64,000 nucleotides of DNA, taken from the NCBI GenBank assembly GCA_002311135.1, contig DBZK01000020.1, forward strand, positions 121,708 through 185,707. The letters run 5' to 3'. Both the position numbers and the translations under genes were made by a program. This stretch comes from Dehalococcoidia bacterium UBA1162 (GTDB lineage: Bacteria > Chloroflexota > Dehalococcoidia > GIF9 > UBA5629). Positions 649 through 39,436 of the stretch are shown here, one piece after another (positions within the stretch are counted from its first letter, which is position 1; each line of letters starts with the position of its first letter). The notes under the pieces are model-generated. The model was not told the origin of the DNA and made no database searches. It saw only the letters and a program-made list of their open reading frames with translations.

Positions 649-1401
649 ATGGAGATTTCGCTTAAAAACAAGGTGGCCATGATAACCGGCGCCAGCCGCG
701 GCATTGGCAGGGCCATAGCGATTGAAATGGCAAAATCGGGAGCCGATGTCGTGTTGGCCAGCCGCAAGATTGCCGACCTGGAGAAGGTAGCCAGGGAGAT
801 AAGGGCCCTTGGCGTTAAGGCAGTGCCAGTAGCTGCGCATATAGGGCGGCAGGAGGATATTACTGTGCTGGTCTCCAAAGCTGTAGAAGAGTTCGGCAGG
901 ATAGATATCCTGGTGAATAATGCGGCTACCAACCCGACAATGGACTCCGCTATCGATGTCTCGGAGCGGGCCTGGGATTCCACTATGAACCTCAATCTCA
1001 AAGGCCTGTTTTTCCTTAGCCAGGCCGTCGCCCGCGTCATGAAGGAGCATGGCGGAGGCGTAATTATCAACGTATCTTCCATAGCCGGGGTCACGCCTGA
1101 TATTTTACCGATTTACTCGGTCAGCAAGGCGGGCGTAAATATGGCTACCAAGGTCATGGCACAGCAATGGGCCTGTTATGGCATAAGGACTAATACCCTG
1201 TCACCCGGCCAGACTAAAACCCAGTTCAGCCAGGCCTTATGGGGCAACCCCGAAATCTATAAATACATCATGGCCAGAACCCCCTTAAAACGCATAGGCG
1301 AGCCCGAGGACATGGCCCGAGCGGCCGTGTTCCTAGCCTCCAACGAGGCGGGCTTTATCACAGGCCAAAACCTTATCGTCGACGGGGGCATGACTATCTA
1401 G
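649..1401 (+). CDS. short-chain dehydrogenase/reductase (FabG-like SDR)
   Basis: 250 aa. TGASRGIG Rossmann motif and NNAA motif. Classical SDR length and catalytic region. Confidence 0.85.
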   Translation: MEISLKNKVAMITGASRGIGRAIAIEMAKSGADVVLASRKIADLEKVAREIRALGVKAVPVAAHIGRQEDITVLVSKAVEEFGRIDILVNNAATNPTMDSAIDVSERAWDSTMNLNLKGLFFLSQAVARVMKEHGGGVIINVSSIAGVTPDILPIYSVSKAGVNMATKVMAQQWACYGIRTNTLSPGQTKTQFSQALWGNPEIYKYIMARTPLKRIGEPEDMARAAVFLASNEAGFITGQNLIVDGGMTI

Positions 1402-1480
1402 GGCGTATTTATTTCCGGATCGTCATTGAGGCGATACAACAGAAAAAATTCCGTATGGATTAAAAATTTAAGGAGTTATC

Positions 1481-2959
1481 ATGATTTCGTCAAGCCAGTA
1501 CAGAAAAAGACTTACTAAACTGCGGCGCAATATCTACAACGACGGCAAGCTCGTAGATAGGGATTTCAAGCGGCTCGAGGGGGCGGTAAATATCATTGCC
1601 AAGACCTATGATATGATTACCGATCCTGAATTTAAAGACTACCAGGATATACTTACCGCAACTTCCCATCTAACGGGGGAAAAGATCAGCCGCTTCACAC
1701 ATATCCATCGCAGCATCGCAGACTTGCTGGCCAAGCAGAAAATGACCAGGATCACGTCTCAGCAGGTCGGCGGCTGCATCGCCAGGTGCATGGGCATTGA
1801 CTCAACCAATGCTCTTTCGGTAGTAACTTACATGTGCGATCAGAAATATGGAACCGAGTACAATAAGCGCTTTGAAAAATGGCTCAAGGACTTCCAGATC
1901 AACGACCGCACGTCATGCTGTGCCCAGACCGATGTCAAAGGTAACCGGCCCTGGAGGCCTCACGAACAGAAAGATCCAGACCTTTACCTGAGGATCGTGG
2001 AGAGAAAGAGCGACGGAATCGTAGTGCGCGGCGCCAAGGTGCACAATTCCTTTGCCCCCGTAGTAGAGCAAATCAACGTAATCCCCACCAGGGCCCTGAC
2101 CAAGGAGGAGGGCGACTGGGCGGTGGCATTTACCATCCCGGCTGATGCTGAAGGAGTAAAACAGATTGTCAGCGCCGCTATGCCTGAATACCCCAAAGGA
2201 TTTAGCGGGCCTGGACCGTGGGGCGGCTCCGATTCCATGACCGTCTTCGACGATGTTTTCGTTCCCTGGGATAACGTGTTCCTTTGCGGTGAGACTGATA
2301 TGGGCGGCTACCTGGCCCTGATGTTTGCCCAATATCACCGCCATAGCTACACGGGCTGTAAGCCGGCTATGACCGACGTCCTGACAGGCGCGGCAGCCCT
2401 GATGGCCGAAGTAAACGGTATTGAAAAGGAGCACCACGTCCGTGAAAAGCTGGCCGAACTGATATGTACGTCAGAGCTTGTTTACGGCACCGGTATCGCC
2501 GCTGCTGTTAACGGCAGCAAATCACCTTCGGGCACCTTTGTTCCCGATACCATGTACTGCAACGTGAGCCGCAGGCATGCCGGCCTCAATATCTATCATG
2601 AATACGACATTGTGGCGGATATTGCAGGCGGTATGCCGGCCACCATGCCCCGCTCAGGAGATTGGGTGAACGAGGAAACCAAGCCCTTTATGGAAAAATA
2701 TATGGCCCGTAATCCGGATGTGGACGTTCAGGATGTGCTCAAGGCCTTCTCCTGGGTGCAGGGCCTTACCTGTTCCGAGTGGGCCGGCGTTATGCAATAC
2801 GCCGGCGTGCATGGCGGCGGTTCTCCCAGGATGGAACAGATCGCTATTATGGGCGCCTATAACCTGGAAAATACCAAGAATATCGCCAAGCGACTGGCCG
2901 GCATCAAGGTAAACAAACCCTATACCTTTGACCGGCTTGGCAATACTCCCAAACTCTAA
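1481..2959 (+). CDS. abfD: 4-hydroxybutyryl-CoA dehydratase/vinylacetyl-CoA isomerase-like (HpaB/AbfD family) Fe-S flavoenzyme
   Basis: 492 aa. QKDPDLYLRIVERKSDGIVVRGAKVH closely matches the AbfD signature. The GGCIARCMG and YHRHSYTGCK segments preserve the Cys/His [4Fe-4S] ligand pattern of AbfD. Confidence 0.65.
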   Translation: MISSSQYRKRLTKLRRNIYNDGKLVDRDFKRLEGAVNIIAKTYDMITDPEFKDYQDILTATSHLTGEKISRFTHIHRSIADLLAKQKMTRITSQQVGGCIARCMGIDSTNALSVVTYMCDQKYGTEYNKRFEKWLKDFQINDRTSCCAQTDVKGNRPWRPHEQKDPDLYLRIVERKSDGIVVRGAKVHNSFAPVVEQINVIPTRALTKEEGDWAVAFTIPADAEGVKQIVSAAMPEYPKGFSGPGPWGGSDSMTVFDDVFVPWDNVFLCGETDMGGYLALMFAQYHRHSYTGCKPAMTDVLTGAAALMAEVNGIEKEHHVREKLAELICTSELVYGTGIAAAVNGSKSPSGTFVPDTMYCNVSRRHAGLNIYHEYDIVADIAGGMPATMPRSGDWVNEETKPFMEKYMARNPDVDVQDVLKAFSWVQGLTCSEWAGVMQYAGVHGGGSPRMEQIAIMGAYNLENTKNIAKRLAGIKVNKPYTFDRLGNTPKL

Positions 2960-2973
2960 GCGCAACAACTATA

Positions 2974-3022
2974 AAAAAGGACTGGCTGCAGCTAATTCTT
3001 AACCTGCAGCCAGTCCTTTTTA
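2974..3022. terminator. rho-independent terminator (13-bp perfect stem, A-tract 5', T-tract 3')
   Basis: ggactggctgcag / ctgcagccagtcc inverted repeat at 2979-3016, flanked by aaaaaa and ttttt. Confidence 0.75.
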
Positions 3023-3079
3023 CATACATCGATTGAACGTTCGGCCAACCTTCCGCATATCTAACTAATCGCATATTTG

Positions 3080-3099
3080 TTGACGGCATGTGATATAAT
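3080..3099 (+). promoter_or_regulatory. putative promoter with extended -10 (TGaTATAAT) for substrate-binding-protein gene
   Basis: TGATATAAT at 3091-3099. The TTGACG upstream is only 8 nt away, so this is likely an extended -10 type promoter. Confidence 0.35.
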
Positions 3100-3125
3100 G
3101 GCTTCATTATATAGAGGAGGTGGCA

Positions 3126-4478
3126 ATGAAAACCAAGGGCACGATTCTTTCACTAACCATTATTTTCACACTCATAGCTGCAATGATCGTGAGCGGCTGT
3201 GCGCAGCCCTCGACAGGGAAAGCCCCAATAGTCATAGGCTATGTCGGCGACGTCGCGTCACCGGGCACCAAACCCTGCATGGATATTCAGCAGATGGCTG
3301 TTGAAGAGATCAATGCAGCGGGCGGTATCCTGGGCAGGCCCATCAAGTATGTAATCGAGGATGGCAAGGGCGAGACATCGCTATCAGTGGCAGCCGTACA
3401 AAGAATGGTCATGGGGGACAAGGCAACCTTCTACTTTGTAGAAGGCAGGACGGAGATTGCGCTGGCAACCAAGCAGAAATCAATCGAGCTTTATAAAGAT
3501 TTCCCGCACATTATGATTGCCAATGGCGCCAGCGGCGTGGAGGTCACCGCCTCAGTGATTCAGAACTACGACAACGAAAAGATGATCTTCCGTGATTTCA
3601 ATCCCGAACCCGGTCATTACGCCTGGGCAAACCTCATTTTCTCCTGGTCCCAAGCGGACGGTCCTAACACACCCAAGGGTATGGCCCCTAAAAAATGGGC
3701 CTTGCTCTATGAAAACCTGGACTGGACACTGCTTTTCCGCAATGGCTATCCAACTCTCAATCTTCCTACCTGGGATCAGATGGCCAAAGACAAGTATGGC
3801 ATCGATGTTGTATACAGCAAACCTTTCAGCGCCAGGGCGGGCATGTACCTGCCGATAATGGACCAGATCTCCAAGGCCGGCGCTGACATGATCTTCGTCG
3901 TTTCAAGCTGGTTTACAGATACGGAAGTAATTGCCAAACAGTGGGCCGACTCGCCGGCTAAAGATATTCAGTTATACTTGTATGGCGGCGTAAACCAGAC
4001 CCACGATTTCTGGCAGCTTACCGGCGGCAAAGCGCTCGGTGCGCTGACGGCATCTTACGAAACGCCGATCACCAACTATAACATGGCTGTCGTGACCAAA
4101 GCCAGGGCCAGGGGCATACCCTGCCAGATGCATGTGCTCTGTGCTTACGATGACATTTACCAGATCAAGGCGGCCATTGAGATGGCCGGGGGTACGGATG
4201 ATGTAGGCAAGCTGATTACCGCTCTGGAGACGGTCCAGGTCGATAATGGCACACTTGGTCCTACCAAGTACGAAATGACCAAGGTACCCGGCTTCTTCCA
4301 TTCCCGCGTATGCGCCGATCCCAATAATCCCACACAGATGTTACCAAACGGTATGGCGATCGGTTCAGCCCAGATCCAGGCTAACGGTGAATATGTACCT
4401 ATGTATCCCGGAAAATATGCTCAACTCGATAAATATCAGACCCCTGCACAGCTCAGGGCTGCTGCCGGTGCTAAATAG
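3126..4478 (+). CDS. ABC transporter substrate-binding lipoprotein, LivK/periplasmic-binding-protein type I family
   Basis: Signal peptide plus lipobox (IVSGC). ANF-receptor/Peripla_BP_6-like sequence. GGAGG RBS lies 6 nt upstream of the ATG at 3126. The tool's 3120 start is a GTG inside the RBS. Confidence 0.8.
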   Translation: MKTKGTILSLTIIFTLIAAMIVSGCAQPSTGKAPIVIGYVGDVASPGTKPCMDIQQMAVEEINAAGGILGRPIKYVIEDGKGETSLSVAAVQRMVMGDKATFYFVEGRTEIALATKQKSIELYKDFPHIMIANGASGVEVTASVIQNYDNEKMIFRDFNPEPGHYAWANLIFSWSQADGPNTPKGMAPKKWALLYENLDWTLLFRNGYPTLNLPTWDQMAKDKYGIDVVYSKPFSARAGMYLPIMDQISKAGADMIFVVSSWFTDTEVIAKQWADSPAKDIQLYLYGGVNQTHDFWQLTGGKALGALTASYETPITNYNMAVVTKARARGIPCQMHVLCAYDDIYQIKAAIEMAGGTDDVGKLITALETVQVDNGTLGPTKYEMTKVPGFFHSRVCADPNNPTQMLPNGMAIGSAQIQANGEYVPMYPGKYAQLDKYQTPAQLRAAAGAK

Positions 4479-4498
4479 TTTAGGAGGAGGTGATAATT

Positions 4499-5212
4499 TT
4501 GAGAAAGCTATATTTGCCGATCGCATTCATTCTAATCGCAGTCCTGTTCGCGTCCGCAGCTTGTGCCCCTTCCGAGCTAAAACCGGCAACGGTCACACTC
4601 AACTTGATCTCCAACGAGTGGCAGGGCGCAGAGACAGTTGTTGCCGATTCAATCTTCAGCATTGAAAATCCCAATAATGTCGCGGTCACGCTTGACCAGT
4701 TCAACTATACCATCAGCCTTAACGGCCAGGCGCTGACTCAGAGAACAGTAGGGCCTGAGATTGAAATACCTGCCAATACCGCCGTGCAATTAACCTATGC
4801 CAACGTGCTGCCCTTCAATGGGTTCGGCGGCGTGGCATTCGAGGGTTATTACATGGCCAAGAGCATGCCTTACGTGCCGGCCCTTATTGCGGGCTCCGCC
4901 CCGTGGAAACTGCTTGGTGGCAAGGAGCCAGGTCTGTGGACAGATCCCAACATACAAGTTCTTAACCTTATCAGGAGCGCTCCGACAGCGGATAACATAA
5001 CCAGCGGAGCTGTCGACAACAACACCGTTGCGGCAAAGTATTTGAAGATTATTGGATTGGTTAACGCCGTCCAGGGGCCTATGGATAAAGCCTGGGCTGC
5101 TTACCCCTCCGGACCCTGCAAATACGATGTCAGCGGAAAGGCCACCATATCCAATCCCAATTTCAGCAAATCTGTTGACACCACTTTCACCTTGAGCTTT
5201 ACCAAGCCTTAA
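4499..5212 (+). CDS. lipoprotein with LEA_2 / WHy (water-stress, NPN-motif) domain
   Basis: Signal peptide ending LFASAAC. IENPNNVAVTLDQFNYTISLNGQAL is the classical LEA14-like NPN motif. The TTG start at 4499 is 8 nt after GGAGGAGG. The alternative GTG at 4490 lies inside the RBS. Confidence 0.5.
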   Translation: MRKLYLPIAFILIAVLFASAACAPSELKPATVTLNLISNEWQGAETVVADSIFSIENPNNVAVTLDQFNYTISLNGQALTQRTVGPEIEIPANTAVQLTYANVLPFNGFGGVAFEGYYMAKSMPYVPALIAGSAPWKLLGGKEPGLWTDPNIQVLNLIRSAPTADNITSGAVDNNTVAAKYLKIIGLVNAVQGPMDKAWAAYPSGPCKYDVSGKATISNPNFSKSVDTTFTLSFTKP

Positions 5213-5231
5213 ACGGTAACCTGAACAATAA

Positions 5232-5264
5232 AAGAAGAGCCTTCCAAATGGAAGGCTCTTCTTT
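5232..5264. terminator. bidirectional rho-independent terminator between convergent genes
   Basis: gaagagccttcc-aaat-ggaaggctcttc 12-bp stem, A-rich 5' and ttta 3'. Confidence 0.7.
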
Positions 5265-5284
5265 ATGCCTGCTAAAGTTCGTAA

Positions 5285-6607
5285 TTATTTAAGGTATTTC
5301 TCGCGCACGTAATCGTTATCCTGGCCAATCTTACATTTGACCCACTTGACACGCGGCGGAGACTCAGACATCTTAATAAAATTGACGGGCATTTTAAATT
5401 TTCCCAGCATCTCGTCATCGAATTCCTGGAAGGATTGGCGCTTGGCCCAGTGAGGATTCTGCATGGTAGTCGCCGGCTTTTGCACTTTCATAATTATGGG
5501 AACGCCGCCGCCGCGCCATTTGGAGCGGGCGGATTTGATACTATATTCAAGCGCCATTTTGACCAGCTCATCAGAAGTGTATTTGATCGTTCGGTCTTCA
5601 ATGATCTTGTAAAATTGCTCTACCTGGTCGAGTATGTCAGGTATCCTGTCGAAGGTGAAACGGTAGTCATCTTCATGCTGCCACAGCTTTAACACCTTAA
5701 GCAACGCCCTGAAGTCATGGTCCCTGCCGGCCGCAATAGCCACAATGCCATCCTTGCTTTTCCAGAATCCATATGGATATATGGCAAAATCGTGTATGCC
5801 AATCCTGGGCCGTGCCTTATTCCAGGTGAACCCGATGGTGACGGGGTATCCCACCAGCGAAGCATAAGAATCAGCCGTGGCCACATCCACCATCTGACCC
5901 TCACCGGTAGCTTGAGAATAGTAACGCGCTACTGCACCTCCCAGGGCCGCCTCAATACCCGAAATATACCAGCTCAGCCATACCCCGGCCCTCAGCGGCC
6001 AGTTATACGGCTCCCCGGAACCAGGCATATCGCCTATATTGGCGCACACACCCGATATCGCCTGGGCGGTTATATCCGAATCGGGGACGTTGATAAACTC
6101 TTTGGCCTTTTCACCATATTGTCCGTAGGGGCTGATCGCTATATACACCAGGCCCGGATTGATCTCAGCCAACTGGCGATATCCAACTCCCCATGAGTCC
6201 ATAGTGCCGGGCGCATAGGTCTCAATAACTATCTGCGCCTTTGCAGCCAGGCTCTTTAAGTCCCGGCGCCCCTCCTCGGTCTTAAGGTCAAGGGTAAAAT
6301 AGCGCTTATTGCGAGCCTCCATGATAAAAGGGACCCCAACGCCGTTACGATTTACGCCGTAGGGAGTTATCTTGCGGGACGGGTCGCCTTCAGGAGGTTC
6401 TATCTTGATCACCTCGGCGCCGAATTCTGCAAATATGCTCGAGCATATATCACCGGACAAATTGGCATAACTTACGTCCAGCACCGTGACATCGTTGAGC
6501 ACTTCCGGCTTGCCTTCGGGGTTGATCATGCCACGGAGAAACTCTTCCCGTTCTTTACGGCTTCCGCCGTATCTAACCAGTATCTGCTCTTTCTCGATCT
6601 TGCTCAT
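5285..6607 (-). CDS. CoA-transferase family III (CaiB/BaiF) protein
   Basis: 440 aa. Has the family III hallmarks VLDVSYANLSGD...GAEVIKIEPPEGD...RNKRYFTLDLK...ETYAPG. Confidence 0.8.
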   Translation of the reverse strand: MSKIEKEQILVRYGGSRKEREEFLRGMINPEGKPEVLNDVTVLDVSYANLSGDICSSIFAEFGAEVIKIEPPEGDPSRKITPYGVNRNGVGVPFIMEARNKRYFTLDLKTEEGRRDLKSLAAKAQIVIETYAPGTMDSWGVGYRQLAEINPGLVYIAISPYGQYGEKAKEFINVPDSDITAQAISGVCANIGDMPGSGEPYNWPLRAGVWLSWYISGIEAALGGAVARYYSQATGEGQMVDVATADSYASLVGYPVTIGFTWNKARPRIGIHDFAIYPYGFWKSKDGIVAIAAGRDHDFRALLKVLKLWQHEDDYRFTFDRIPDILDQVEQFYKIIEDRTIKYTSDELVKMALEYSIKSARSKWRGGGVPIIMKVQKPATTMQNPHWAKRQSFQEFDDEMLGKFKMPVNFIKMSESPPRVKWVKCKIGQDNDYVREKYLK

Positions 6608-6610
6608 TTA

Positions 6611-7948
6611 TCAGCCCTTATAGTTGAACATGGCGTCCTGGGACAGGTCGTAATAAACGGGTGGTTTGATGCCGGGCCTATCGTCCCAGTAGCCTACTAT
6701 CCTTTCCTTTTCCAGCTGCTTGATCTCTTCCTCAGAATACCCGAGCAGTTGTTTGAGCACGTAGCGGTTGTGGTAGCCAAGTGGCCTGGACAGCCACTTA
6801 ATCCTTCCCGGCGTTTTGCTCAGCATGGCCGATGGCCCGGGTATCATAAGTTTGCCGTACATATCATCCTGAAACACGATTACGCTGCCCCGTTCCTGCC
6901 TCCACTGGTCGTAAGTAATCTCATAGTCATCCTCAACCAGGCCAATGGAAAAGCCATATTTTTTAGCTGAATTAACAAGGTTTTCGGCAGTGCTGGCTTT
7001 GACCCATGCTTCAGCCGCATCATGGAGCTCCTTGGCATTGTCGGCCTTCAACCGGTCAAATGAATCCCCATATTTGGTTATTAGTTCGGGCCTGCCCATC
7101 GCCTGGCAAATAGCCTTATACTGCTCGTCAGTCACGGCCGCAATGGCTACGAACTTGCCGTCGCTCGATTTGAAAATGCCCGAAGGGGCCATTGCCGGGT
7201 CTGTATTGCCCACTCGCCCCAAATCTTCGCCGGTTATGCTTTCATAGGTAAAGTTGGGCATGATTCGCATTAAGGCTTCAGCCTGAGCCAGATCTATATA
7301 CTGGCCTTTGCCCGTTTTCTTACGGTAATTGAGCGCCATTATGACGGCCAGCGCTCCGACGTTCCCTGGTAAAAAATCGCCCACATAGTCCGGCAACTTA
7401 TAGTATTTGTCCGTGTCAGGATATCCGGTGAGGCTGATAACGCCGCTGGCGGCCTGGGCCAGCAAGTCCCAGCCGGGGAAGAACCTCATCGGGCCGTATT
7501 GCCCGTATGTGGCACAACTGAGATAAATCAGGCCCGGATTAATTTTACCGAGCTGGCTGTATCCCACGCCCCAGGTCTCAGCGGTCCCTGCCGCAAAGTT
7601 TTCCACCACGACATCCGATTGCTCCACCATTTTATAGATTATTTCCCTGGCTTTAGGCAATTTCAGGTTAAGGGCGAAGAAATATTTCCCGTATTGCACG
7701 AAATGGAAACATACGCTGGAGTGTCTCCAGAAACTGCCCCAGTAGACGCCGAAACGCCACAGGTCCCCCACCCAGGGCAGTTCAAATTTTATTACCTCGG
7801 CACCGTACTGCCCCAGTATCTTGGCGGCGGTCGGCCCGTATATAACATGTGTAAAATCCAGTACCCTTAAACCCTTGAATACCTCGGGTTTCTCCTTGGT
7901 TTTCGAGGGGTCGAACAGCTTTTTTGTGTAATCGAAATAATCGTCCAT
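6611..7948 (-). CDS. CoA-transferase family III (CaiB/BaiF) protein, paralog
   Basis: 445 aa. VLDFTHVIYGP...GAEVIKFE...ENFAAG. Separated by 3 nt from the downstream paralog, suggesting a heteromeric pair. Confidence 0.8.
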   Translation of the reverse strand: MDDYFDYTKKLFDPSKTKEKPEVFKGLRVLDFTHVIYGPTAAKILGQYGAEVIKFELPWVGDLWRFGVYWGSFWRHSSVCFHFVQYGKYFFALNLKLPKAREIIYKMVEQSDVVVENFAAGTAETWGVGYSQLGKINPGLIYLSCATYGQYGPMRFFPGWDLLAQAASGVISLTGYPDTDKYYKLPDYVGDFLPGNVGALAVIMALNYRKKTGKGQYIDLAQAEALMRIMPNFTYESITGEDLGRVGNTDPAMAPSGIFKSSDGKFVAIAAVTDEQYKAICQAMGRPELITKYGDSFDRLKADNAKELHDAAEAWVKASTAENLVNSAKKYGFSIGLVEDDYEITYDQWRQERGSVIVFQDDMYGKLMIPGPSAMLSKTPGRIKWLSRPLGYHNRYVLKQLLGYSEEEIKQLEKERIVGYWDDRPGIKPPVYYDLSQDAMFNYKG

Positions 7949-7951
7949 TAT

Positions 7952-8656
7952 TTACATCCCGAGGTAAGCTTTCTTGACCACATCGCTGTCAAGCAATTTT
8001 TCGCTTACATCCGCATAGATGACCCGGCCATTCTCCATGATATAGCCCCGTCCGGCAATGGTCAGGGCCTGCCGGGCATTCTGTTCGGATAATATCAGTG
8101 TAATTTTCTCTTCTTTTAGTTTGGCCAGGGTGTCGTATACCAGCTCGAGTATTTTAGGCGCCAGCCCCAGCGAAGGCTCATCCACCATTAACATTTTGGG
8201 ATTGGACATCAGGCCGCGGGCGATCACCATCATCTGCTGTTCACCGCCGCTTAACGTGCCTGCCGACTGATTTTTTCGCTCTTTTAATATGGGGAACATA
8301 TTAAAAACCCTCTCCAGGGTTTTTTTCCGTATCGGCCAGGCGGTCCTGTTATAAGACCCGACCAGCAGGTTATCCATCACGCTCATGTAAGGGAAAATCC
8401 TGCGTGCCTCCGGCACCTCGGCAATCCCGCGTTTAATTATTTCATAGGGTTGCAACTTCTCTATACTCTCACCCTCGAATAATATCTTGCCTTTGGTGGG
8501 CTTTATCATCCCAAGAATAGTATTAATTAGCGTTGACTTGCCGGCGCCATTGGAGCCCAGCAGCGCAACCATTTCGCCTGTCTCCACTGTCATATTTACA
8601 CCGTGGAGGACCGGCGTTACACCGTAGGCCACATACAGGTCCTGCACTTCAAACAT
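7952..8656 (-). CDS. livF: branched-chain amino acid-type ABC transporter ATP-binding protein LivF
   Basis: Walker A GSNGAGKST, LSGGEQQM signature, 234 aa. Confidence 0.85.
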   Translation of the reverse strand: MFEVQDLYVAYGVTPVLHGVNMTVETGEMVALLGSNGAGKSTLINTILGMIKPTKGKILFEGESIEKLQPYEIIKRGIAEVPEARRIFPYMSVMDNLLVGSYNRTAWPIRKKTLERVFNMFPILKERKNQSAGTLSGGEQQMMVIARGLMSNPKMLMVDEPSLGLAPKILELVYDTLAKLKEEKITLILSEQNARQALTIAGRGYIMENGRVIYADVSEKLLDSDVVKKAYLGM

Positions 8657-9386
8657 GGCATGATCCCAGGTAGCACTCGATTACATAGGGGTCGTTGGCA
8701 ACATCCTGCGGCAACCCTTCACAGATTTTCTGCCCGTAATGCAGGACAACCACCCTCTGTGCCGCCTGCATCAGCGCTGCCATGACATGCTCGATCCAGA
8801 GTATGGTAACGCCGAATTCTTCCTTGGCCCTTTCAAGCAGCCTGACCGCTTTATAGGCCTCATCGGGATTTAAACCCGCCATAACCTCATCCACAAAGAT
8901 TAATTTAGGAGTGGTAGCCAGCGCCCGGGCCAGTTCCAGGCCGCGCAGCTCGTATAATGTAAGGTCTTTGCCCAGCACATTGCGTTTACTGAACAGCCCG
9001 CAGAACTCAAGGTAGTGGGTAGCCTCCGTTGCAGCGTCTTCAAGGCTCTGGTTGGCCCTGTCCTTTCCATATAAGGCGCTTACTACAACGCTCATTAAAG
9101 CTGTAAGCTCAGGGAAGGGCCTTGGTATTTGATATGTCCGGCTTATGCCCAGCTTACACCGCCTGTACGCAGGCATCCTGGTTATGTCATGTCCCATGAA
9201 CTGGATGTTGCCGCTATCTGCCAGATACTTTCCGGTGATCATATTCACCAGAGTTGTTTTACCTGCGCCGTTGGGGCCCATAAGTCCCAGCGTTTCGCCC
9301 TCGATAATTGAAAAGCTGACGTCGTTAATCGCCATCAGCCCCCCGAAATGCTTGGATACGCTATCTATTTTCAGTATCTCAGTCAC
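8649..9386 (-). CDS. livG: ABC transporter ATP-binding protein LivG
   Basis: Walker A GPNGAGKTT, 245 aa. 8-nt overlap with livF. Confidence 0.85.
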   Translation of the reverse strand: MTEILKIDSVSKHFGGLMAINDVSFSIIEGETLGLMGPNGAGKTTLVNMITGKYLADSGNIQFMGHDITRMPAYRRCKLGISRTYQIPRPFPELTALMSVVVSALYGKDRANQSLEDAATEATHYLEFCGLFSKRNVLGKDLTLYELRGLELARALATTPKLIFVDEVMAGLNPDEAYKAVRLLERAKEEFGVTILWIEHVMAALMQAAQRVVVLHYGQKICEGLPQDVANDPYVIECYLGSCHV

Positions 9387-9389
9387 AAC

Positions 9390-10427
9390 TTATCTCCTGA
9401 CATGCAGTGTCGGCAGGTATTCCCTGTAGCGGCGTTTTCTGTATAGGCCGAATAGGCCTTCGGGAAGTGTGAGCAGCAGGATGAGCAATATAATCGGGAA
9501 CACTACCTGTGAATACTCACCCAGCACGCTTGACAAAAAGAGCTCAAGGATCACTATAAAGTAACCGCCGATCACATTGCCGTATATCTGCACACGGCCG
9601 CCGATCATGCTCACCAGCAGGACCTTGACCATAAATGCCAGGGGCAGATAGGTAACGCCGGAGAAAGTGCCGTAATAATGAGCGTAAAACCAGCCTATCA
9701 CCGCTATCATCACCGCCGGGATGGTAAAGCTGATGATCTTAATCTTCTTTACGTTTACGCCCATGGCCTCCGCCACTTCTTCATCATCATTGATGGCGGC
9801 CATCGACGCGGCAAATTTGGAACGCATGATCTTATCCACGATAAACATATATAGCAGCATCATAAACAATGACATCAGACATATGAGGAACTGATTAACT
9901 GTAAAGTGGCCTACATTGACCATCTGCGCAATGCCGAACAGGCCGGTATCGCCTTTGAAGAGGTCCGTATAAATGAATGTAATCTCCAGGAAAACCAGCG
10001 GGAAAAGCAGTGTTAACAGCGTGTAATAAAGGCCGCCCGCAATGATGGAGAGCGGGCTCATTAATAGTCCGAAGATCAGGCCCGCCAGTATGGCCATTAG
10101 CAATGTTACAAATGGCGGCCAACCCAGGTTGATGCTGCAAAGGGCTGCTGTAAACCCGCCCACTCCAATATAAAACTGCGGGCCGAAATTCATTCGTCCG
10201 GTTCCGATAGTCATCCACCCCAGCGGTATGGCTATGGCGGCCAACAGGTTAGCGTCTATTACAGTGGGAAGCCATTGGGGGTATAAGAAATAAACCGCTA
10301 TCGGCACCAGTATCAGGATACCTACATAGATAAAAGGATTGCGCCAGTACCTGGGCTCGATATGCCATTCGTACTTTTGCGTACCAACCCTTAATACCAG
10401 TTTTTCCCGTTTTATTTCTAGTTCCAT
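9390..10427 (-). CDS. livM: ABC transporter permease LivM
   Basis: 345 aa, polytopic, LivM-like. Confidence 0.8.
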   Translation of the reverse strand: MELEIKREKLVLRVGTQKYEWHIEPRYWRNPFIYVGILILVPIAVYFLYPQWLPTVIDANLLAAIAIPLGWMTIGTGRMNFGPQFYIGVGGFTAALCSINLGWPPFVTLLMAILAGLIFGLLMSPLSIIAGGLYYTLLTLLFPLVFLEITFIYTDLFKGDTGLFGIAQMVNVGHFTVNQFLICLMSLFMMLLYMFIVDKIMRSKFAASMAAINDDEEVAEAMGVNVKKIKIISFTIPAVMIAVIGWFYAHYYGTFSGVTYLPLAFMVKVLLVSMIGGRVQIYGNVIGGYFIVILELFLSSVLGEYSQVVFPIILLILLLTLPEGLFGLYRKRRYREYLPTLHVRR

Positions 10428-10431
10428 CGGA

Positions 10432-11307
10432 TCACCACAAACTCTCGGTTTTGGCTATACCCTGTGGCCTGACAATTAGCATGATGATTACCACGATTAA
10501 AGCTGCCAGGTTCATCAGTCGGGGCTCGCCAAGGGGGAAGGATACGAAGGAATGTGCAAAGCCAATAATATAGCTGGCGATAATGGTGCCCCTGATATTG
10601 CCCAGGCCGCCCATAACCGATACCAGTATGGCGGTTGTCATGTAGCCCCATCCCATGTCCGGGTTGACTGCAAGCACGGGGGCAATCATCAGCATGGCAA
10701 TAATGACTGGAATAACCACTATTACCATGATAAACATATATAACTGTTCGACCTGGATTCCCATCATCTTGGCGGAATTAATATCATATGAAATAGCGCG
10801 TGCGGCCAGCCCGGTCTTGGTCTTAAGAAAAAAGAGCACGAACAAGGCAGTGACTACAATGCCGGTTATGGCAGCCAGGACCATCTGTATGGGAACAGTG
10901 GTGGAACCGACGTTTAGAGTGCCGTCTATGATCGTGGTAGGCAGGTTTACGGCGCTCTGTATGGGATACCACTTGTTGGCGGCCGCGTTGGCAATAATTG
11001 CCACCAGCAGTAGCCCGGTAATGATCTTCTCTTCTTGTTTTAAATATTTGGCTATAATGCCGTAATAAAGACCGATGGCTATAGCGGCCTGCAGCACCAC
11101 CATCAATAAAATGGACGGCCACAGCGGCAGGTTGAGCGTGTGGAAAAACATCCAGGTCAGGTAAATGGTGGCTACAAATATATAAGCATAGCCAAGATGG
11201 AAGATCCTCAGGACACCGCATATCAGGGAGAAACCCAGAGAAACCAACAGATAAAGAGAGCCGAGAAGAAAGGTGTAGATCAGCGTTATCTCAATTGTTT
11301 CGAACAC
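10432..11307 (-). CDS. livH: ABC transporter permease LivH
   Basis: 291 aa, polytopic, LivH-like. GTG start at 11307. Confidence 0.8.
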   Translation of the reverse strand: MFETIEITLIYTFLLGSLYLLVSLGFSLICGVLRIFHLGYAYIFVATIYLTWMFFHTLNLPLWPSILLMVVLQAAIAIGLYYGIIAKYLKQEEKIITGLLLVAIIANAAANKWYPIQSAVNLPTTIIDGTLNVGSTTVPIQMVLAAITGIVVTALFVLFFLKTKTGLAARAISYDINSAKMMGIQVEQLYMFIMVIVVIPVIIAMLMIAPVLAVNPDMGWGYMTTAILVSVMGGLGNIRGTIIASYIIGFAHSFVSFPLGEPRLMNLAALIVVIIMLIVRPQGIAKTESLW

Positions 11308-11362: not shown

Positions 11363-11391
11363 ATATTAACAGATATTTTGGGCACTGTCAA
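11363..11391 (-). promoter_or_regulatory. sigma70-like promoter for liv/CoA-transferase operon (TTGACA-17-TAATAT on minus strand)
   Basis: Reverse complement reads TTGACA gtgcccaaaatatctgt TAATAT, about 55 nt upstream of the livH start. Confidence 0.5.
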
Positions 11392-12947: not shown

Positions 12948-14263
12948 AAGTTGTCTTCCTGTGCGGTGGAGTGGGCAAGAGGATGTTCCCCATAACTGAA
13001 GACAAGTTCCTGCTGGATTTTCTGGGCAGGACTTTGCTGGAGCACCAGGTATCGATGGCGCGTGATGCCGGCCTCAATGATTTTATCATCATTGGAAATC
13101 CGGGCAATATCGAGCAGATCAAACAGGTTGTATCAACGGTCAGCGGCCCCAGATTCGAATTTGCCCTGCAGGCCAAGCCGCTGGGGATAGCGGATGCCCT
13201 GAAATGTGCACAACCATTTCTCGACAGAGAAATCTTGATAGTTAATCCTAACGATGTCTTCCACGCCTCGGCTTACGGCGTTTTGCTCGACGCCTTTAAG
13301 AAAGGAAAGTCCTCGTCCTATATGCTGGGCTATGAAGTCAAGCAATACTTTCCGGGCGGATACCTGGCCGTCAACGGGCAAGGTGAGCTAACACGAATTG
13401 TCGAAAAACCCGAACCCGGCACCGAACCCTCCAACCTTGTGAACATCCTGCTTCACCTTCATACCGACACCGGCAAGCTGTTCGGATATGTAGCAAAGGT
13501 TAAGACTAAAAAGGACGATGTATACGAGTGCGCCATGGATGACATGGTAAAGGAGGGGCATAAGATCAGCGTCGTCCCTTATAATGGGTTCTGGGCCCCT
13601 ATCAAGTACCCCTGGCACATCTTCGATATAGTTAACGATTTCCTCAGTGCCGGTGAACGACAAATCGCTCCTTCCGCATCTATATCCGATCAAGCCGTCG
13701 TTGCCGGCAAGGTGATTATCGGTGAAAACGTGCGCATTTTAGAAAATGCCGTGGTGCGGGGGCCTGTCTATATCGGGCCGAATACAGTGATCGGCAACAA
13801 CGCACTGGTCCGGGATAATTCTCATATCGGGGCCGACTGTGTAATAGGTTTTTCTACTGAGATAAAAGGTTCCTACATCGGCGACGGTTGCTGGTTCCAT
13901 TCCAGCTATATCGGCGATTCGATTATCGGCAATAATTGTTCTTTCGGCGCAGGCAGCATAACGGCCAACTTCCGCTTTGATGAAAATGAAATATTGGTCC
14001 GGCGCCATGAAAAGCCGATAGGGACAGGAAGGGACCACTTCGGCGCCATCATCGGTGATAACTGCAAAACTGGTATCAACTCTGGGATACTGCCCGGCCG
14101 GCGCGTCGGCCCCAACTCGATAGTTGGGTCTCACGTATGCCTGAACACAGACCTCGAACCAAATACTATCGCCCTATATCAGCCGTCCATCAAATACATG
14201 AAGAACGATATTAAATTAAAAAATCTCGATAAACATGAGATACAGAAAAAACTCGGGAAATAA
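12944..14263 (+). CDS. sugar-1-phosphate nucleotidyltransferase with C-terminal left-handed beta-helix (GlmU-like / GDP-mannose pyrophosphorylase-like, archaeal-type)
   Basis: LCGGVGKRMFPIT pyrophosphorylase motif at the N-terminus. Hexapeptide repeats (IGDNCKTGINSGILPGRRVGPNSIVG) at the C-terminus. 4-nt overlap with the upstream mutase. Confidence 0.75.
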   Translation: MKVVFLCGGVGKRMFPITEDKFLLDFLGRTLLEHQVSMARDAGLNDFIIIGNPGNIEQIKQVVSTVSGPRFEFALQAKPLGIADALKCAQPFLDREILIVNPNDVFHASAYGVLLDAFKKGKSSSYMLGYEVKQYFPGGYLAVNGQGELTRIVEKPEPGTEPSNLVNILLHLHTDTGKLFGYVAKVKTKKDDVYECAMDDMVKEGHKISVVPYNGFWAPIKYPWHIFDIVNDFLSAGERQIAPSASISDQAVVAGKVIIGENVRILENAVVRGPVYIGPNTVIGNNALVRDNSHIGADCVIGFSTEIKGSYIGDGCWFHSSYIGDSIIGNNCSFGAGSITANFRFDENEILVRRHEKPIGTGRDHFGAIIGDNCKTGINSGILPGRRVGPNSIVGSHVCLNTDLEPNTIALYQPSIKYMKNDIKLKNLDKHEIQKKLGK

Positions 14264-14976
14264 TGCCTGACGTAAAGAGTATCAAGCTACCCAGACATGT
14301 TGCCATCATCATGGACGGTAACGGCCGCTGGGCTAAAAAACGTCATAAGCCACGCATATTCGGCCATGAGCAAGGGGCATTGCACGCCCGCGATTTCGTG
14401 GAATTTTTTTCCGGGTATGGCATCCCCTATTTAACGCTCTATGCGTTCTCGACGGAGAACTGGAACCGGCCCAAAGCCGAGGTTGACAGCATCATCAAAT
14501 TACTTTCAGAGCACCTGGATGAAGCCATTAAAATCGCCCATGCCAAAAACATCCGCATCAAACACCTTGGCAGGATGGACAGGCTTTCACCGGGCATCCA
14601 GAAAAAAGCAAGGCAGGCTATCAATCTGACCAAAGGCAATACAGGCCTGACGGTCAGCATCGCCTTCAATTACGGCGGCCGGAGCGAGATTGTTGATGCT
14701 GTTCAGAATATAATCCGCAGGAAGTTAGACGCCGATAAAATTGATGAGGCTCTATTTTCAAAATACCTTTATACAGCGGGTATGCCTGATCCCGATCTGT
14801 TCATCCGTACGGGAGATGAAATGCGCCTCAGCAATTTCCTGATCTGGCAGGCGGCTTATGCTGAGCTTTATTTTACTCCGGTTCTCTGGCCTGATTTTGG
14901 CAGGGAAGAATTGGAGAAGGCGCTTGTCGATTACAGCAGGCGGCATCGGAGATTTGGCGGTCTGCGCACCGTGTAG
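14263..14976 (+). CDS. uppS: isoprenyl transferase (undecaprenyl-diphosphate synthase)
   Basis: HVAIIMDGNGRWA, YLTLYAFSTENWNRP and RTGDEMRLSNFL are cis-prenyltransferase signatures. TAATG stop/start overlap with the upstream gene. Confidence 0.9.
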   Translation: MPDVKSIKLPRHVAIIMDGNGRWAKKRHKPRIFGHEQGALHARDFVEFFSGYGIPYLTLYAFSTENWNRPKAEVDSIIKLLSEHLDEAIKIAHAKNIRIKHLGRMDRLSPGIQKKARQAINLTKGNTGLTVSIAFNYGGRSEIVDAVQNIIRRKLDADKIDEALFSKYLYTAGMPDPDLFIRTGDEMRLSNFLIWQAAYAELYFTPVLWPDFGREELEKALVDYSRRHRRFGGLRTV

Positions 14977-14985
14977 TATTCCATC

Positions 14986-15010
14986 AAGGACTCCTGGGTG
15001 GATAGTCCTT
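14986..15010 (+). other. weak stem-loop (7-bp stem, 11-nt loop) between uppS and reductase gene
   Basis: aaggact...agtcctt. No T-tract follows, so it is not a convincing terminator. Confidence 0.2.
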
Positions 15011-15023
15011 CCTGAACTTAAAT

Positions 15024-16220
15024 ATGTATGATGTAATTATTGTTGGAGCGGGCATTGCGGGCAGCTATACCGCCGGCAAGCTGGCAGGGCAGGGGTTACG
15101 CGTCTGCGTACTTGAGAAGAACGCCCATGCCGGGCATAAGTCAAGCTGTACCGGTATCGTCAGCAGGGACTGCTTCGAACTGCTTCCTGTGGATACAAGA
15201 ATAGTTCAGTGGCAGGCTCGCTCTGCTAAGATATTCTCCCCCTCGGGTAAATATATCCGGGTTGAACGTGAAACGACCCAGGCTTATATACTCGACAGGC
15301 CAGCTTTGGATCTTAGTATAGCCAAACAGGCAGAGGCAAGCGGCGCCGAATTTCACTTTTCCACATATGTATCCGGCATCCACAAGGATGCAAAATCAGT
15401 CCGCGTGCAGGGGTCCGACAAGAACGGGCAAGTCAGCTTTGAATCCAAGGTGGTTGTCATTGCCAGCGGCTTTGGGACCTCGTTTACAAAGGCCCTGGGC
15501 CTCGGCCAGATAAACGAGTACGCCCAGGGTGCACAGGTTGAGGTCGTCAACAAGGACATTGAAGAAGTCGAAGTATATTCAGGGACAGATATCGCTCCGG
15601 GTTTCTTTGCCTGGCTGGTGCCTGCAGGCGCCGGGAGGGCCAAAGCCGGCCTGCTGTGCAGGAATAACCCCGGACCGTACATAAAAATCCTCCTTGAACA
15701 TCTTCAACAGCAGGGCAAAATAGAAGCTGTCAGGAGCAATATAAGCTACGGCGCCGTACCATTAAAGCCGCTGGCCAGGACTTATGCCGACCGCCTGATA
15801 GTCATTGGTGATGCCGCCGGACAGGTCAAGCCTACGACAGGGGGGGGGATCTATTTTGGGCTGCTGTGCGCCCGGATAGCTGTCGGAACTATATGCGACA
15901 CTATTAAAAATAATAATTTTTCGGCAAGGAACCTGTCAGTCTATCAAAAGAAGTGGCACGAGATGCTCAAGCGTGAGCTGGCTATCGATTACTGGGCGCA
16001 CAAATTTTACCGTAAACTCAGTGACCGGCAAATAGAACACATATTCGATATAATCGAACACCATAGTATCCACGAGTCCCTGCTGGCTTCGCCGGATATC
16101 ACCTTTGACTGGCACAGCAACGTTATTCTTGACGCCATTAAGCACCGCTCACTGGATAAGTCCCTGGGAAAGCTTAACCTCCGGTTAGCCAGCCACTCCA
16201 ACAATTCAAAGCGCAGGTAA
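15024..16220 (+). CDS. geranylgeranyl reductase family FAD-dependent oxidoreductase
   Basis: VIIVGAGIAGSYTA FAD fold. GGR-family length (398 aa) and conserved Cys-containing N-terminal region. Confidence 0.8.
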   Translation: MYDVIIVGAGIAGSYTAGKLAGQGLRVCVLEKNAHAGHKSSCTGIVSRDCFELLPVDTRIVQWQARSAKIFSPSGKYIRVERETTQAYILDRPALDLSIAKQAEASGAEFHFSTYVSGIHKDAKSVRVQGSDKNGQVSFESKVVVIASGFGTSFTKALGLGQINEYAQGAQVEVVNKDIEEVEVYSGTDIAPGFFAWLVPAGAGRAKAGLLCRNNPGPYIKILLEHLQQQGKIEAVRSNISYGAVPLKPLARTYADRLIVIGDAAGQVKPTTGGGIYFGLLCARIAVGTICDTIKNNNFSARNLSVYQKKWHEMLKRELAIDYWAHKFYRKLSDRQIEHIFDIIEHHSIHESLLASPDITFDWHSNVILDAIKHRSLDKSLGKLNLRLASHSNNSKRR

Positions 16221-16256
16221 ACAAAGGCCCACTATCATTCCGCATACTTAGCCCGT

Positions 16257-16285
16257 CTTGCACTTTCAATTAAGATATGATATTA
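16257..16285 (+). promoter_or_regulatory. sigma70-like promoter (TTGCAC-17-TATTAT) for nusA operon
   Basis: TTGCAC at 16257-16262, 17-nt spacer, TATTAT at 16280-16285. Confidence 0.5.
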
Positions 16286-16308
16286 TTTTACTGCATTCAA
16301 TACTCGTC

Positions 16309-16337
16309 CAAAAAGTGGGTCCTAGTACCCACTTTTT
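16309..16337 (+). terminator. intrinsic-terminator-like hairpin in nusA 5' leader (candidate NusA-dependent attenuator)
   Basis: aaaaagtgggt-cctagt-acccacttttt is an 11-bp perfect stem followed by T-run. It lies downstream of the promoter and 36 nt upstream of the nusA ATG. Confidence 0.45.
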
Positions 16338-16372
16338 TATTGAAAAAATGAATATGAGGGAAATTGGCTTAA

Positions 16373-22194: not shown

Positions 22195-23181
22195 ATGTTT
22201 AAAAAAATACTCGTTCCGCTCGATGGTTCACGTGAGGCGGAGACCGTACTACCATATGTAAGGGATATTGCAATCCGTTTTGGCTCCGAGGTCGACATCC
22301 TTAGCGTAGGTCTGGGCAGCAAGCGCCGCAGGGTCAACCAGTTGCTGGATGACTACGTCCAACACACCGTGGAGCACTTCCAGAAACAAAATATCGTCTG
22401 CCAGGCAGTCCTCCTTTACAGTAGTCGAGAGGAAGAGCTGGCCGGATTCGCAGAGGTCAACGCTCAGGTGAACAACCTTAAGGCCAAGGGCAAGGTGGTT
22501 TATGGCGGGCCGGCCGACATGATACTGGATTATGAGCAGAAACATCGTGTAAACCTGGTTGTCATGGCGACTCACGGTCATGGCGGACTGCTTCGCTGGT
22601 GGCTTGGAAGTGTATTTGAAAAAGTCGTTTCCAATTCAATGTCGCCGGTGCTGGGAATACATGGAAGGCAGGCCAAGGAGCTCGACAAGGACAGGACGGT
22701 AACCTTTAAGCGCATACTGACACCGCTTGACGGGTCGGTTATCGGTGAAGCCGCCCTGCATGATGCTGAAGCTGTAGCACTCAAAACGGGCGCCTCAATT
22801 GTCCTGCTGCATGTCATCCCCGAGCCGCATGCCATCGAATCCCGCATCCTGGGGCCCGAATTCGTGGACTTCGTCAAAGCTATGCACGAAGCCGGCAACA
22901 AGTATCTCATCAAAGTCAGCGAAAGGCTATCCGAGAAAGGGATCAATGTTACAGCCAGAATCATTACAGGCGACCCTGCTGAAAGGATCGTTGATATAGC
23001 CAAACATGAAAAAGTGGACCTAATAGCCATGTCCACCCACGGAAGAAGCGGAATCGCCAGGTGGGTACTCGGAAGTGTTGCGGATAAAATCCTGCACGAG
23101 TCCAAGACCCCCATGTGGCTGGTCAGGCCGAAGAAGATCATCGACCGGATGCTCGATCACGAAGGCCACAAGGCGAGCTAA
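22195..23181 (+). CDS. tandem universal stress protein (two UspA domains)
   Basis: Two repeats of ILVPLDGS...ATHG(H/R)(G/S)G...GSV. 328 aa. Confidence 0.85.
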   Translation: MFKKILVPLDGSREAETVLPYVRDIAIRFGSEVDILSVGLGSKRRRVNQLLDDYVQHTVEHFQKQNIVCQAVLLYSSREEELAGFAEVNAQVNNLKAKGKVVYGGPADMILDYEQKHRVNLVVMATHGHGGLLRWWLGSVFEKVVSNSMSPVLGIHGRQAKELDKDRTVTFKRILTPLDGSVIGEAALHDAEAVALKTGASIVLLHVIPEPHAIESRILGPEFVDFVKAMHEAGNKYLIKVSERLSEKGINVTARIITGDPAERIVDIAKHEKVDLIAMSTHGRSGIARWVLGSVADKILHESKTPMWLVRPKKIIDRMLDHEGHKAS

Positions 23182-24322: not shown

Positions 24323-24377
24323 AAGACGCTGCGCCAGTGACCACAATTAAGCTAAAACGCTTCGACAGGGCAGGCCG

Positions 24378-25490: not shown

Positions 25491-25508
25491 TATTTAAGGA
25501 ACTGTTTT

Positions 25509-36629: not shown

Positions 36630-39436
<2,807 letters not shown>

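Follow-up and report, generated by a model that had tools for sequence, protein, structure and literature searches.

Liv-type ATP-binding cassette (ABC) importers for aromatic acids are encoded beside acyl-coenzyme A (CoA) ligases. Organic-acid importers of the HAAT type, such as those with the p-coumarate- and 4-hydroxybenzoate-binding proteins of Rhodopseudomonas palustris (PDB 4f8j, 4evs), follow a logic of uptake and then thioesterification, the latter by an AMP-forming ligase. A CoA-transferase serves instead in BbsEF, the succinyl-CoA:(R)-benzylsuccinate CoA-transferase (PDB 9fn0), which is encoded by two adjacent paralogous family-III genes of a beta-oxidation operon that follows a glycyl-radical fumarate-adding enzyme; LssDE, a relative of BbsEF, is likewise described as a two-gene CoA-transferase (PMC12583861). 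Here we analyze a 64,000-nucleotide stretch of the uncultured Dehalococcoidia bacterium UBA1162 (contig DBZK01000020.1, hereafter the window), in which the genes at positions 649-11307 join a Liv-type importer to two family-III CoA-transferases, CoAT1 and CoAT2. We read this locus as two modules whose proximity is largely peculiar to this lineage: an import-and-thioesterify cassette, and a separate unit of a short-chain dehydrogenase/reductase (SDR) and an enzyme resembling AbfD, the 4-hydroxybutyryl-CoA dehydratase / vinylacetyl-CoA isomerase (4HBD), with optional coupling between the two. With some reserve, we consider this reading the probable one.

The cassette comprises seven genes, livH-livM-livG-livF-CoAT1-CoAT2 and a gene for a lipoprotein substrate-binding protein (SBP). 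A metagenome scan with a CoAT1 alignment, together with six gene-context loci, gave 86 other cassette loci (individual loci are numbered with an L below) in Syntrophales, Thermodesulfobacteriota and Dehalococcoidia, all uncultured, and gene order and strand were identical in all of them as far as the contigs extend. CoAT1 was seen in 86 of these loci, LivF in 82, CoAT2 in 78 and the SBP in 55, and 35 were complete from LivH to SBP. An earlier note on this DNA, made from the letters alone, had described the importer and the two transferases as one tight operon and had proposed looking for it in relatives; its recurrence in the same order in 86 further loci across phyla bears this out. A search at E <= 1e-30 gave 1402 relatives of CoAT1, among them a tight group of orthologs, 58-62% identical, from Syntrophales, Smithellaceae, Desulfobacteraceae and other Thermodesulfobacteriota; further Dehalococcoidia carry CoAT1 at 71-85%. 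With both transferases taken together, identity to the Syntrophales and Thermodesulfobacteriota orthologs is 58-64%, and for the SBP it is 47-55%. No cultured host of the cassette was found, each named member of the CoAT1 cluster being a metagenome-assembled genome, and the cassette occurs often in metagenomes from digesters, sediment, peat and groundwater.

The cassette has the same five components as the HAAT organic-acid importers and shares their logic of uptake followed by thioesterification. It differs from the known loci in that a predicted ATP-independent heteromeric CoA-transferase takes the place of the AMP-forming ligase, in that the transporter operon includes the transferase genes as fixed members across phyla, and in that its proteins fall in deep uncharacterised subfamilies. 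A full-text literature search returned no account of paired family-III CoA-transferases joined to a Liv-type importer, although absence from such a search is not proof. The flanks of the cassette hold mostly unrelated housekeeping genes, which marks it as a self-contained unit; small subsets of loci have next to it an AMP-forming ligase, an enoyl-CoA hydratase, an SDR, an NMO-type flavoprotein, or an Amino_oxidase-type flavoprotein with an FMN reductase. The last arrangement is seen in one deltaproteobacterial sub-lineage (L108, L109, L111, L112, L117, L130, L137), where three same-strand genes downstream of the SBP encode an Amino_oxidase/CrtI-like flavoprotein of 514 amino acids, an FMN_red protein of 284 and a protein of 118; in L117 these three genes are preceded by an SDR 67% identical to that of the window.

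In the window the importer operon lies on the minus strand and begins with a LivH-type permease (10432-11307, 291 amino acids, BPD_transp_2 1.8e-28), followed by a LivM-type permease (9390-10427, 345 amino acids, BPD_transp_2 1.5e-22), a LivG-type ATPase (8649-9386, 245 amino acids, ABC_tran and BCA_ABC_TP_C), a LivF-type ATPase (7952-8656, 234 amino acids, ABC_tran 7e-34), CoAT1 (6611-7948, 445 amino acids, CoA_transf_3 (PF02515) 9e-92) and CoAT2 (5285-6607, 440 amino acids, CoA_transf_3 (PF02515) 8e-81). The spacings from livH to CoAT2 are 4, 3, -8, 3 and 3 nt, so that the gaps of 3-4 nt given in the earlier note hold for four junctions, whereas LivG and LivF overlap by 8 nt. On the plus strand are the SBP gene (3126-4478, 450 amino acids, Peripla_BP_6, Pfam 4e-23), for which the ATG at 3126 is a likelier start than the GTG at 3120, and a gene for a LEA_2/WHy-domain lipoprotein (about 4490-5212, PF03168 4e-7), whose start is placed by gene callers at about 4499 or 4514 and whose signal peptide has its Cys after ...ASAA. 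The gene contexts from other lineages show LivH-LivM-LivG-LivF-CoAT1-CoAT2-SBP on a single strand; L171 shows the same SBP relocation as the window. As the window SBP is 47-55% identical to the cassette SBPs, it is the cassette's own binding protein, relocated. Cassette loci carry one to four SBP copies in tandem; two to four paralogs are present in L094, L099, L101, L102, L104, L112, L120, L130, L137 and L153, and in L102 all four lie upstream of livH. These tandem paralogs suggest a range of related ligands. The LEA_2 lipoprotein is confined to the close Dehalococcoidia relatives L005, L006, L043 and L172, where at 42-44% identity it has diverged much faster than its neighbours (75-85%).

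CoAT1 and CoAT2 are 31% identical to each other and both contain full-length family-III domains, so that, like BbsEF, they are adjacent paralogous CoA_transf_3 genes. Alignment with YfdE, SUGCT, 4ed9 and 10uh places CoAT1 D191 at the conserved Asp of the (T/A)D motif, corresponding by offset to Frc D169, and this residue is invariant in 72 of 72 distinct orthologs; a GWD motif (D161) was also considered for the catalytic Asp and was ruled out, since the alignment with YfdE, SUGCT, 4ed9 and Frc puts it at D191. CoAT2 carries Trp213 in that column, unchanged in 59 of 59 orthologs, and has no conserved acidic residue nearby. BbsF retains the TD motif there and BbsE has a Tyr, and the predicted catalytic Asp is thus found in one subunit only, with an aromatic residue in the other, as in BbsEF. 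In addition, 61 of 63 orthologous loci have a 4-nt overlap between the stop of CoAT1 and the start of CoAT2, where the window has a gap of 3 nt. From the D191/Trp213 asymmetry, the BbsF/BbsE parallel and the overlaps we favour an obligate heteromer of one catalytic and one non-catalytic subunit, and the paired-subunit idea of the earlier note, which had pointed to BbsEF, gains by the same alignment. The likeness to BbsEF is remote. BbsF (9fn0_B) is the best solved relative of CoAT1 (2.6e-46), but its 161 bits are about equal to YfdE (159), SUGCT (159) and formyl-CoA transferase (157), and BbsE (9fn0_A) ranks second for the CoAT2 core and sixth for full-length CoAT2. Because these families score alike, with no clear margin for BbsE or BbsF, and no NCBIfam equivalog applies, the pair are not BbsEF orthologs; no CoA-transferase, binding-protein or AbfD model among the NCBIfam equivalogs reached its cutoff. 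The operon context also differs, CoAT1 and CoAT2 being part of an ABC-importer operon.

Two extensions stand out in these proteins. The C-terminal extension of CoAT1 (residues ~395-445; window 6611-6766) reaches beyond the Pfam domain and the end of BbsF and is strongly conserved in orthologs, with the invariant pattern G, D, G, PP, Y, D, and CoAT2 has an N-terminal extension of ~36 residues (1-36; window 6500-6607). In the improbable, bolder proposal considered further below, these family-specific extensions could be docking elements.

The importer has HAAT (LivHMGF/LivJK-type) architecture, with two BPD_transp_2 permeases, two ATPases, one of them with a BCA_ABC_TP_C tail, and a Peripla_BP_6 SBP with a lipoprotein signal (lipobox ...VSGC). 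Liv and Urt models are the best NCBIfam matches of LivF, LivG, LivH and LivM, and the LivF model gives LivF 242 bits against an equivalog cutoff of 441. The SBP falls short of the models for branched-chain amino-acid and urea binders, scoring 35 bits with the LivJ/K model NF011933 (cutoff 477) and 34 with the UrtA model (cutoff 493). Its family is small and specific, comprising 432 of the scored candidate proteins at E <= 1e-10, and its matches to sequences of solved structures are weak. Its identity to aromatic-acid SBPs is 14-18%. A Foldseek search with its AF2 model (pLDDT 90.9) found binders of Leu, GABA, urea, pyroglutamate, 4-hydroxybenzoate and p-coumarate about equally (TM 0.58-0.69, 13-20% identity), a Leu-bound protein being the best match. 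Known binders being equidistant, assignment of a ligand class from the SBP sequence or model was dropped, and an acid substrate is deduced from the transferase only.

Two other explanations of the cassette were weighed. CoAT1 and CoAT2 might be two independent homodimeric CoA-transferases for different substrates or steps: they share only 31% identity, each has a complete family-III domain, and their strict co-occurrence would also suit two consecutive steps. This is nevertheless highly unlikely, given that CoAT2 has Trp213 and no acidic residue at or around the catalytic position in 59 of 59 orthologs, that the asymmetry is that of BbsF and BbsE, and that stop and start overlap in 61 of 63 loci. 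Alternatively, the transporter could be an ordinary importer of branched-chain amino acids, urea or amides with the CoA-transferases as unrelated passengers of its operon, as the Liv and Urt matches and the Leu-bound top structure would have it. We give this very little credence: all those matches fall far below the curated cutoffs (LivJ/K, 35 vs 477 bits), the SBP is 13-20% identical to any solved one, and importer and transferase genes are fused in one order in 86 loci across two phyla, which is not expected of unrelated genes.

The presence of the CoA-transferase, occasional catabolic neighbours (enoyl-CoA hydratase, SDR, DUF35-thiolase or AMP-forming ligase in L171, L130, L136 and L137) and the lifestyle of the hosts point to a carboxylic acid that would enter a beta-oxidation-like breakdown. 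In the scheme that we propose, the SBP would capture the acid outside the cell and the LivHMGF-type importer would take it in at the cost of ATP, whereupon the BbsEF-like heteromeric transferase, with Asp191 of CoAT1 as catalytic residue and CoAT2 with its Trp213 as non-catalytic partner, would move CoA to it from a central thioester, probably succinyl-CoA or acetyl-CoA. The acid would thereby be trapped and readied for breakdown, and in this organism the SDR-AbfD-like unit (649-2959) may, optionally, process the resulting CoA ester. Hydroxy or oxo acids and aryl-alkanoic acids are reasonable guesses for the substrate; no observation singles out 4-hydroxybutyrate or GABA. Our observations comprise the conserved gene order, the Asp/Trp asymmetry, translational coupling, promoters and terminators, while heteromer formation, transport direction, CoA donor and substrate class are predicted from them. 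A bolder proposal, in which the cassette is an unrecognised type of uptake with ABC import obligatorily, perhaps physically, coupled to a heteromeric CoA-transferase with one active site, is in our estimate improbable. If true, organic acids would be vectorially thioesterified, with no ATP-dependent activation, in energy-limited anaerobes (Syntrophales, Dehalococcoidia).

The second module contains a classical SDR (649-1401, + strand, 250 amino acids, adh_short_C2 3e-65; closest solved relative DHRS4) and the AbfD-like protein, a predicted [4Fe-4S]/FAD enzyme of 492 amino acids with HpaB_N and HpaB_C domains (1481-2959, + strand). The latter has the fold and length of its best solved relatives, AbfD and archaeal 4HBD (1u8v, 3e-98; 6vjr, 7e-90). 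It shares its two domains with the HpaB 4-hydroxyphenylacetate 3-hydroxylases (1e-32) but carries the Cys/His cluster ligands, and as it scored only 136 bits with the HpaB model TIGR02309 (cutoff 480), HpaB hydroxylase identity was rejected. When 1u8v and 6vjr were aligned with all 81 HpaB-family proteins of the fetched loci, and the clade was taken as the 72 sequences at least 47% identical to the window protein, Cys99, Cys103, His292, Tyr296, Cys299, Lys300 and His458 were conserved throughout the clade and Arg90 in 71 of 72. The four [4Fe-4S] ligands, Tyr296, Lys300, Arg90 and His458 are thus shared with AbfD/4HBD; in the window protein the ligands are C99, C103, H286 (=H292) and C293 (=C299), with Y290 (=Y296), all invariant. 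The earlier note had claimed conserved cluster ligands and had named grouping with ligand-free hydroxylases as the finding that would contradict it; the alignment shows the ligands and no such grouping. Database names in the clade are 'aromatic ring hydroxylase' or 4HBD, and with the cluster ligands present the former is misleading.

Departures from AbfD/4HBD set this sister clade apart. Position 455 is Ala, Gly, Ser or Asp and never Glu, Ala460 is always Gly and Gln466 is always Glu (72 sequences), and the window protein has the substitutions Glu455 Ala, Ala460 Gly, Gln466 Glu, Glu257 Asp, Thr190 Ser and Gln101 Ala. A passage in a preprint on the N. maritimus 4HBD (10.1101/2020.02.05.935528), citing Zhang et al. 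2015, names Thr190, Glu257, Tyr296 and Glu455 as important for dehydratase activity. Only Tyr296 of these four is kept in the window protein, whereas the canonical-type paralogs in the data set retain all four. Canonical-type paralogs in L166, L056, L081 and L047 also retain Ala460 and Gln466 beside Glu455, and in L056, L081 and L047 the two types lie less than 10 kb apart, an argument that their roles differ. The AbfD-like protein is an Fe-S/FAD acyl-CoA enzyme of a sister clade ('Glu466 type') of 4-hydroxybutyryl-CoA dehydratase, though its placement among AbfD enzymes proper is not secure. Of the dehydratase assignment in the earlier note, the ligands and Tyr296 stand, and the canonical identity does not (Glu455 Ala, Glu257 Asp, Gln101 Ala). 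The protein most likely carries out AbfD-type dehydration or double-bond isomerisation. A catalytic glutamate may have moved to position 466, where Glu is invariant. That the clade catalyses a radical reaction other than 4-hydroxybutyryl-CoA dehydration, jointly with the obligatory coupling of import and CoA transfer considered above, is a long shot. We know of no assayed member of the Glu466 clade, and a full-text literature search, whose silence is not proof, gave no description of an AbfD clade without Glu455. A predicted model of the protein has a pLDDT of 82.

Clade-specific motifs scanned against a collection with one genome per species matched at least 599 stretches, 598 of them confirmed as relatives, so that the clade is present in at least 598 species. 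The best 80 loci, taken for analysis of neighbours, come from Chloroflexota, Actinomycetota, Bacillota, Thermodesulfobacteriota, Bathyarchaeia, Archaeoglobi and Asgard archaea. Their clade members are flanked by SDR genes (23 loci), 3-hydroxyacyl-CoA dehydrogenase (18), thiolase (16), ABC ATPase (12), acyl-CoA dehydrogenase (11), TetR (9), and enoyl-CoA hydratase, AMP-forming ligase, family-III CoA-transferase and Liv permease (8 each). Judged from these neighbours in 80 genomes, which are rich in enzymes leading from crotonyl-CoA to acetyl-CoA, the AbfD-like proteins would act in beta-oxidation or crotonyl-CoA-type pathways. In L089, HpaB-family variants flank the cassette (3005-4465 and 16018-17544), one with the four ligands but Lys for Tyr296 and Ser for His458, and the other without Cys99 and Cys299.

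The locus is divided by terminators and promoters into three predicted transcription units, namely SDR-AbfD-like, SBP-LEA_2 and livHMGF-CoAT1-CoAT2. Upstream of the SDR gene is a promoter-like site, TTGACA-17-TATTAT (531-559, + strand, 11/12 in the consensus scan), which is weak alone, the number of such sites in the region being equal to the shuffle expectation. The AbfD-like gene is followed by an intrinsic terminator (2974-3021, + strand) with an 18-bp perfect stem, a 12-nt loop and flanking A- and T-runs; its inverted repeat is 100% complementary, at -30.8 kcal/mol and z = -9.6, and none of 200 shuffles was equally stable. The SBP promoter (3080-3099, + strand) consists of an extended -10 element, TGATATAAT (TGnTATAAT, 3091-3099), with a TTGAC block at 3080-3084. 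TGnTATAAT, TTGAC, the strong Shine-Dalgarno sequence AGGAGGTG and the ATG at 3126 are kept in four lineages whose spacers otherwise differ, in agreement with the statement of the earlier note that the SBP gene has its own promoter on the strand opposite to the operon. Only 8 nt separate the TTGAC block from the extended -10 that follows it, and a conserved GCAT lies further upstream (window 3070-3099). As this spacing is wrong for a -35 element, the block may be an operator; the island contains no regulator gene. Between the convergent units is a bidirectional terminator (5231-5264) with a 15-bp stem and 4-nt loop (-25.6 kcal/mol on the plus and -27.9 on the minus strand; z = -7.0 and -6.6). 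The livHMGF-CoAT1-CoAT2 operon has a promoter on the minus strand at 11363-11391 (TTGACA-17-TAATAT, 10/12 in the consensus scan plus TG before the -10), of which the TGTCAA and -10 blocks are kept in three lineages with an otherwise diverged spacer. An Rfam scan of the window gave no family at the gathering score, hence no ligand-revealing riboswitch or leader, and no tRNAs.

All the genes at 649-11307 could instead serve one pathway, as the earlier note had proposed for a carboxylic or hydroxy acid. In the form weighed here, a 4-hydroxy or 4-oxo acid such as 4-hydroxybutyrate would be imported and CoA-activated by the paired transferases, after which the AbfD-like enzyme would dehydrate it and the SDR would perform an oxidation or reduction. 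Several observations speak for this and weigh against two separate modules. The SDR ortholog bridges both, occurring with the AbfD-like gene alone in L008-L010, with the cassette alone in L172 (78% identity) and the deltaproteobacterium L117 (67%), and with both in the window, L005 and L006; SDR orthologs at 66-87% identity adjoin AbfD-like genes in L005-L010. Clade members also belong to other operons that combine a Liv-type ABC importer with CoA activation (L054, L018, L056), L083 has AbfD-like-thiolase-3-hydroxyacyl-CoA dehydrogenase followed by SBP-LivHMGF-CoAT1, and the island is the sole catabolic locus in a housekeeping region, no other catabolic gene being present within the 64-kb window. 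As to the cassette itself, the catalytic roles of CoAT1 and CoAT2 come from sequence alignment rather than structure, and the SBP is equally far from amino-acid, urea and aromatic-acid binders. The single pathway is further favoured by the conserved Fe-S ligands and Tyr296 and by the adjacency of SDR-AbfD-like and cassette, which is kept in L005, L006 and L043. L054 (39-8709, deltaproteobacterial) has on one strand SBP-LivH-LivM-LivG-LivF-AMP-forming ligase-AbfD-like-family-III CoA-transferase (CoAT3), and is an independent case in which a clade member accompanies Liv-type import and CoA activation. An SDR and an enoyl-CoA hydratase in L171 were considered as orthologs of those flanking AbfD-like genes and were rejected, being 38-49% identical, so that they add no link.

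On the other side, the strong terminator (-30.8 kcal/mol) between the AbfD-like gene and the SBP gene and their separate promoters divide the supposed pathway. L172 and L173, two independent contigs of one sister lineage (CoAT1 81%), have the synteny of the window, L21-L27-L31-DUF1385-Usp-SDR (78%)-SBP-LEA_2 / CoAT2-CoAT1-LivFGMH / PGM, and have no AbfD-like gene between SDR and SBP. No AbfD-family gene is within reach in 84 of the 86 other cassette loci, and the remaining two carry other subfamilies; in 496 kb of cassette flanks there are three HpaB-family genes, none of the window's clade, too few for any claim of AbfD-family enrichment near the cassette. Seen from the AbfD-like side, the cassette is found in 4 of 80 loci, 3 of them from the window's own lineage, and Glu455, which the passage in the preprint (10.1101/2020.02.05.935528) calls important for canonical dehydration, is Ala here. 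A single pathway of import, CoA transfer and AbfD dehydration is weak on these grounds, and we regard it as rather unlikely. Coupling of the SDR-AbfD-like unit to the cassette in this particular organism, without being a property of the cassette, is plausible, albeit doubtful. Two modules with optional coupling remain the reading that we prefer.

All genes named in the earlier note (AbfD-like, SDR, SBP, LEA_2, LivHMGF and the two CoA-transferases) were found present and intact at 649-11307 by the open reading frame list and profile searches, the order along the plus strand being SDR first and AbfD-like second, which corrects the listing there. The locus is also present on contigs of 0.7-1.0 Mb from independent samples, and this, with the liv-CoAT-CoAT-SBP order in 86 other loci, shows that it is no chance juxtaposition. 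The remainder of the window is occupied by housekeeping genes (NusA, IF-2, TruB, PurA, DapA/B, Asd, PNPase, DnaX, RecR/O, AhcY, MetK, PGM, PGI, ribosomal-protein operons and EF-G), so that 649-11307 forms an isolated catabolic island. Elsewhere in the window, genes for a myo-inositol-1-phosphate synthase, a GT4 glycosyltransferase and a CDP-alcohol phosphatidyltransferase follow one another at 23216-26105, possibly for an inositol-lipid or inositol-solute pathway, with a tandem-Usp protein just upstream (22195-23181). A geranylgeranyl-reductase-like FAD protein of 398 amino acids is encoded directly after undecaprenyl-diphosphate synthase, between a GlmU-like gene and nusA (14263-16220), and a protein of 518 amino acids, the sole Pfam match of which is a C-terminal AAA_33 kinase-like domain, lies between recO and the AdoHcy hydrolase/MetK pair (36630-38186). 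The same genome also encodes, upstream of the window (L001, 1-4162) and a few kb before the ribosomal L21-L27-L31 genes, a tubulin homolog that contains CetZ_C and a class V FBP aldolase/phosphatase of archaeal type (FBPase_3).

These results have consequences for annotation and for the biology of the hosts. Since the sister clade without Glu455 is present in at least 598 species, matches to AbfD/4HBD are risky as markers of 4-hydroxybutyrate pathways or of carbon-fixation cycles through 4-hydroxybutyrate. The Asp/Trp asymmetry makes a clear prediction, namely that a transferase of BbsEF type with a single active site exists outside hydrocarbon degradation. The lineages that carry the cassette are important in anaerobic carbon turnover, and few of their members are in culture; the substrate of the cassette would reveal a carbon source that they scavenge with high affinity, and CoA transfer would explain how they spare the ATP otherwise spent on acid activation.

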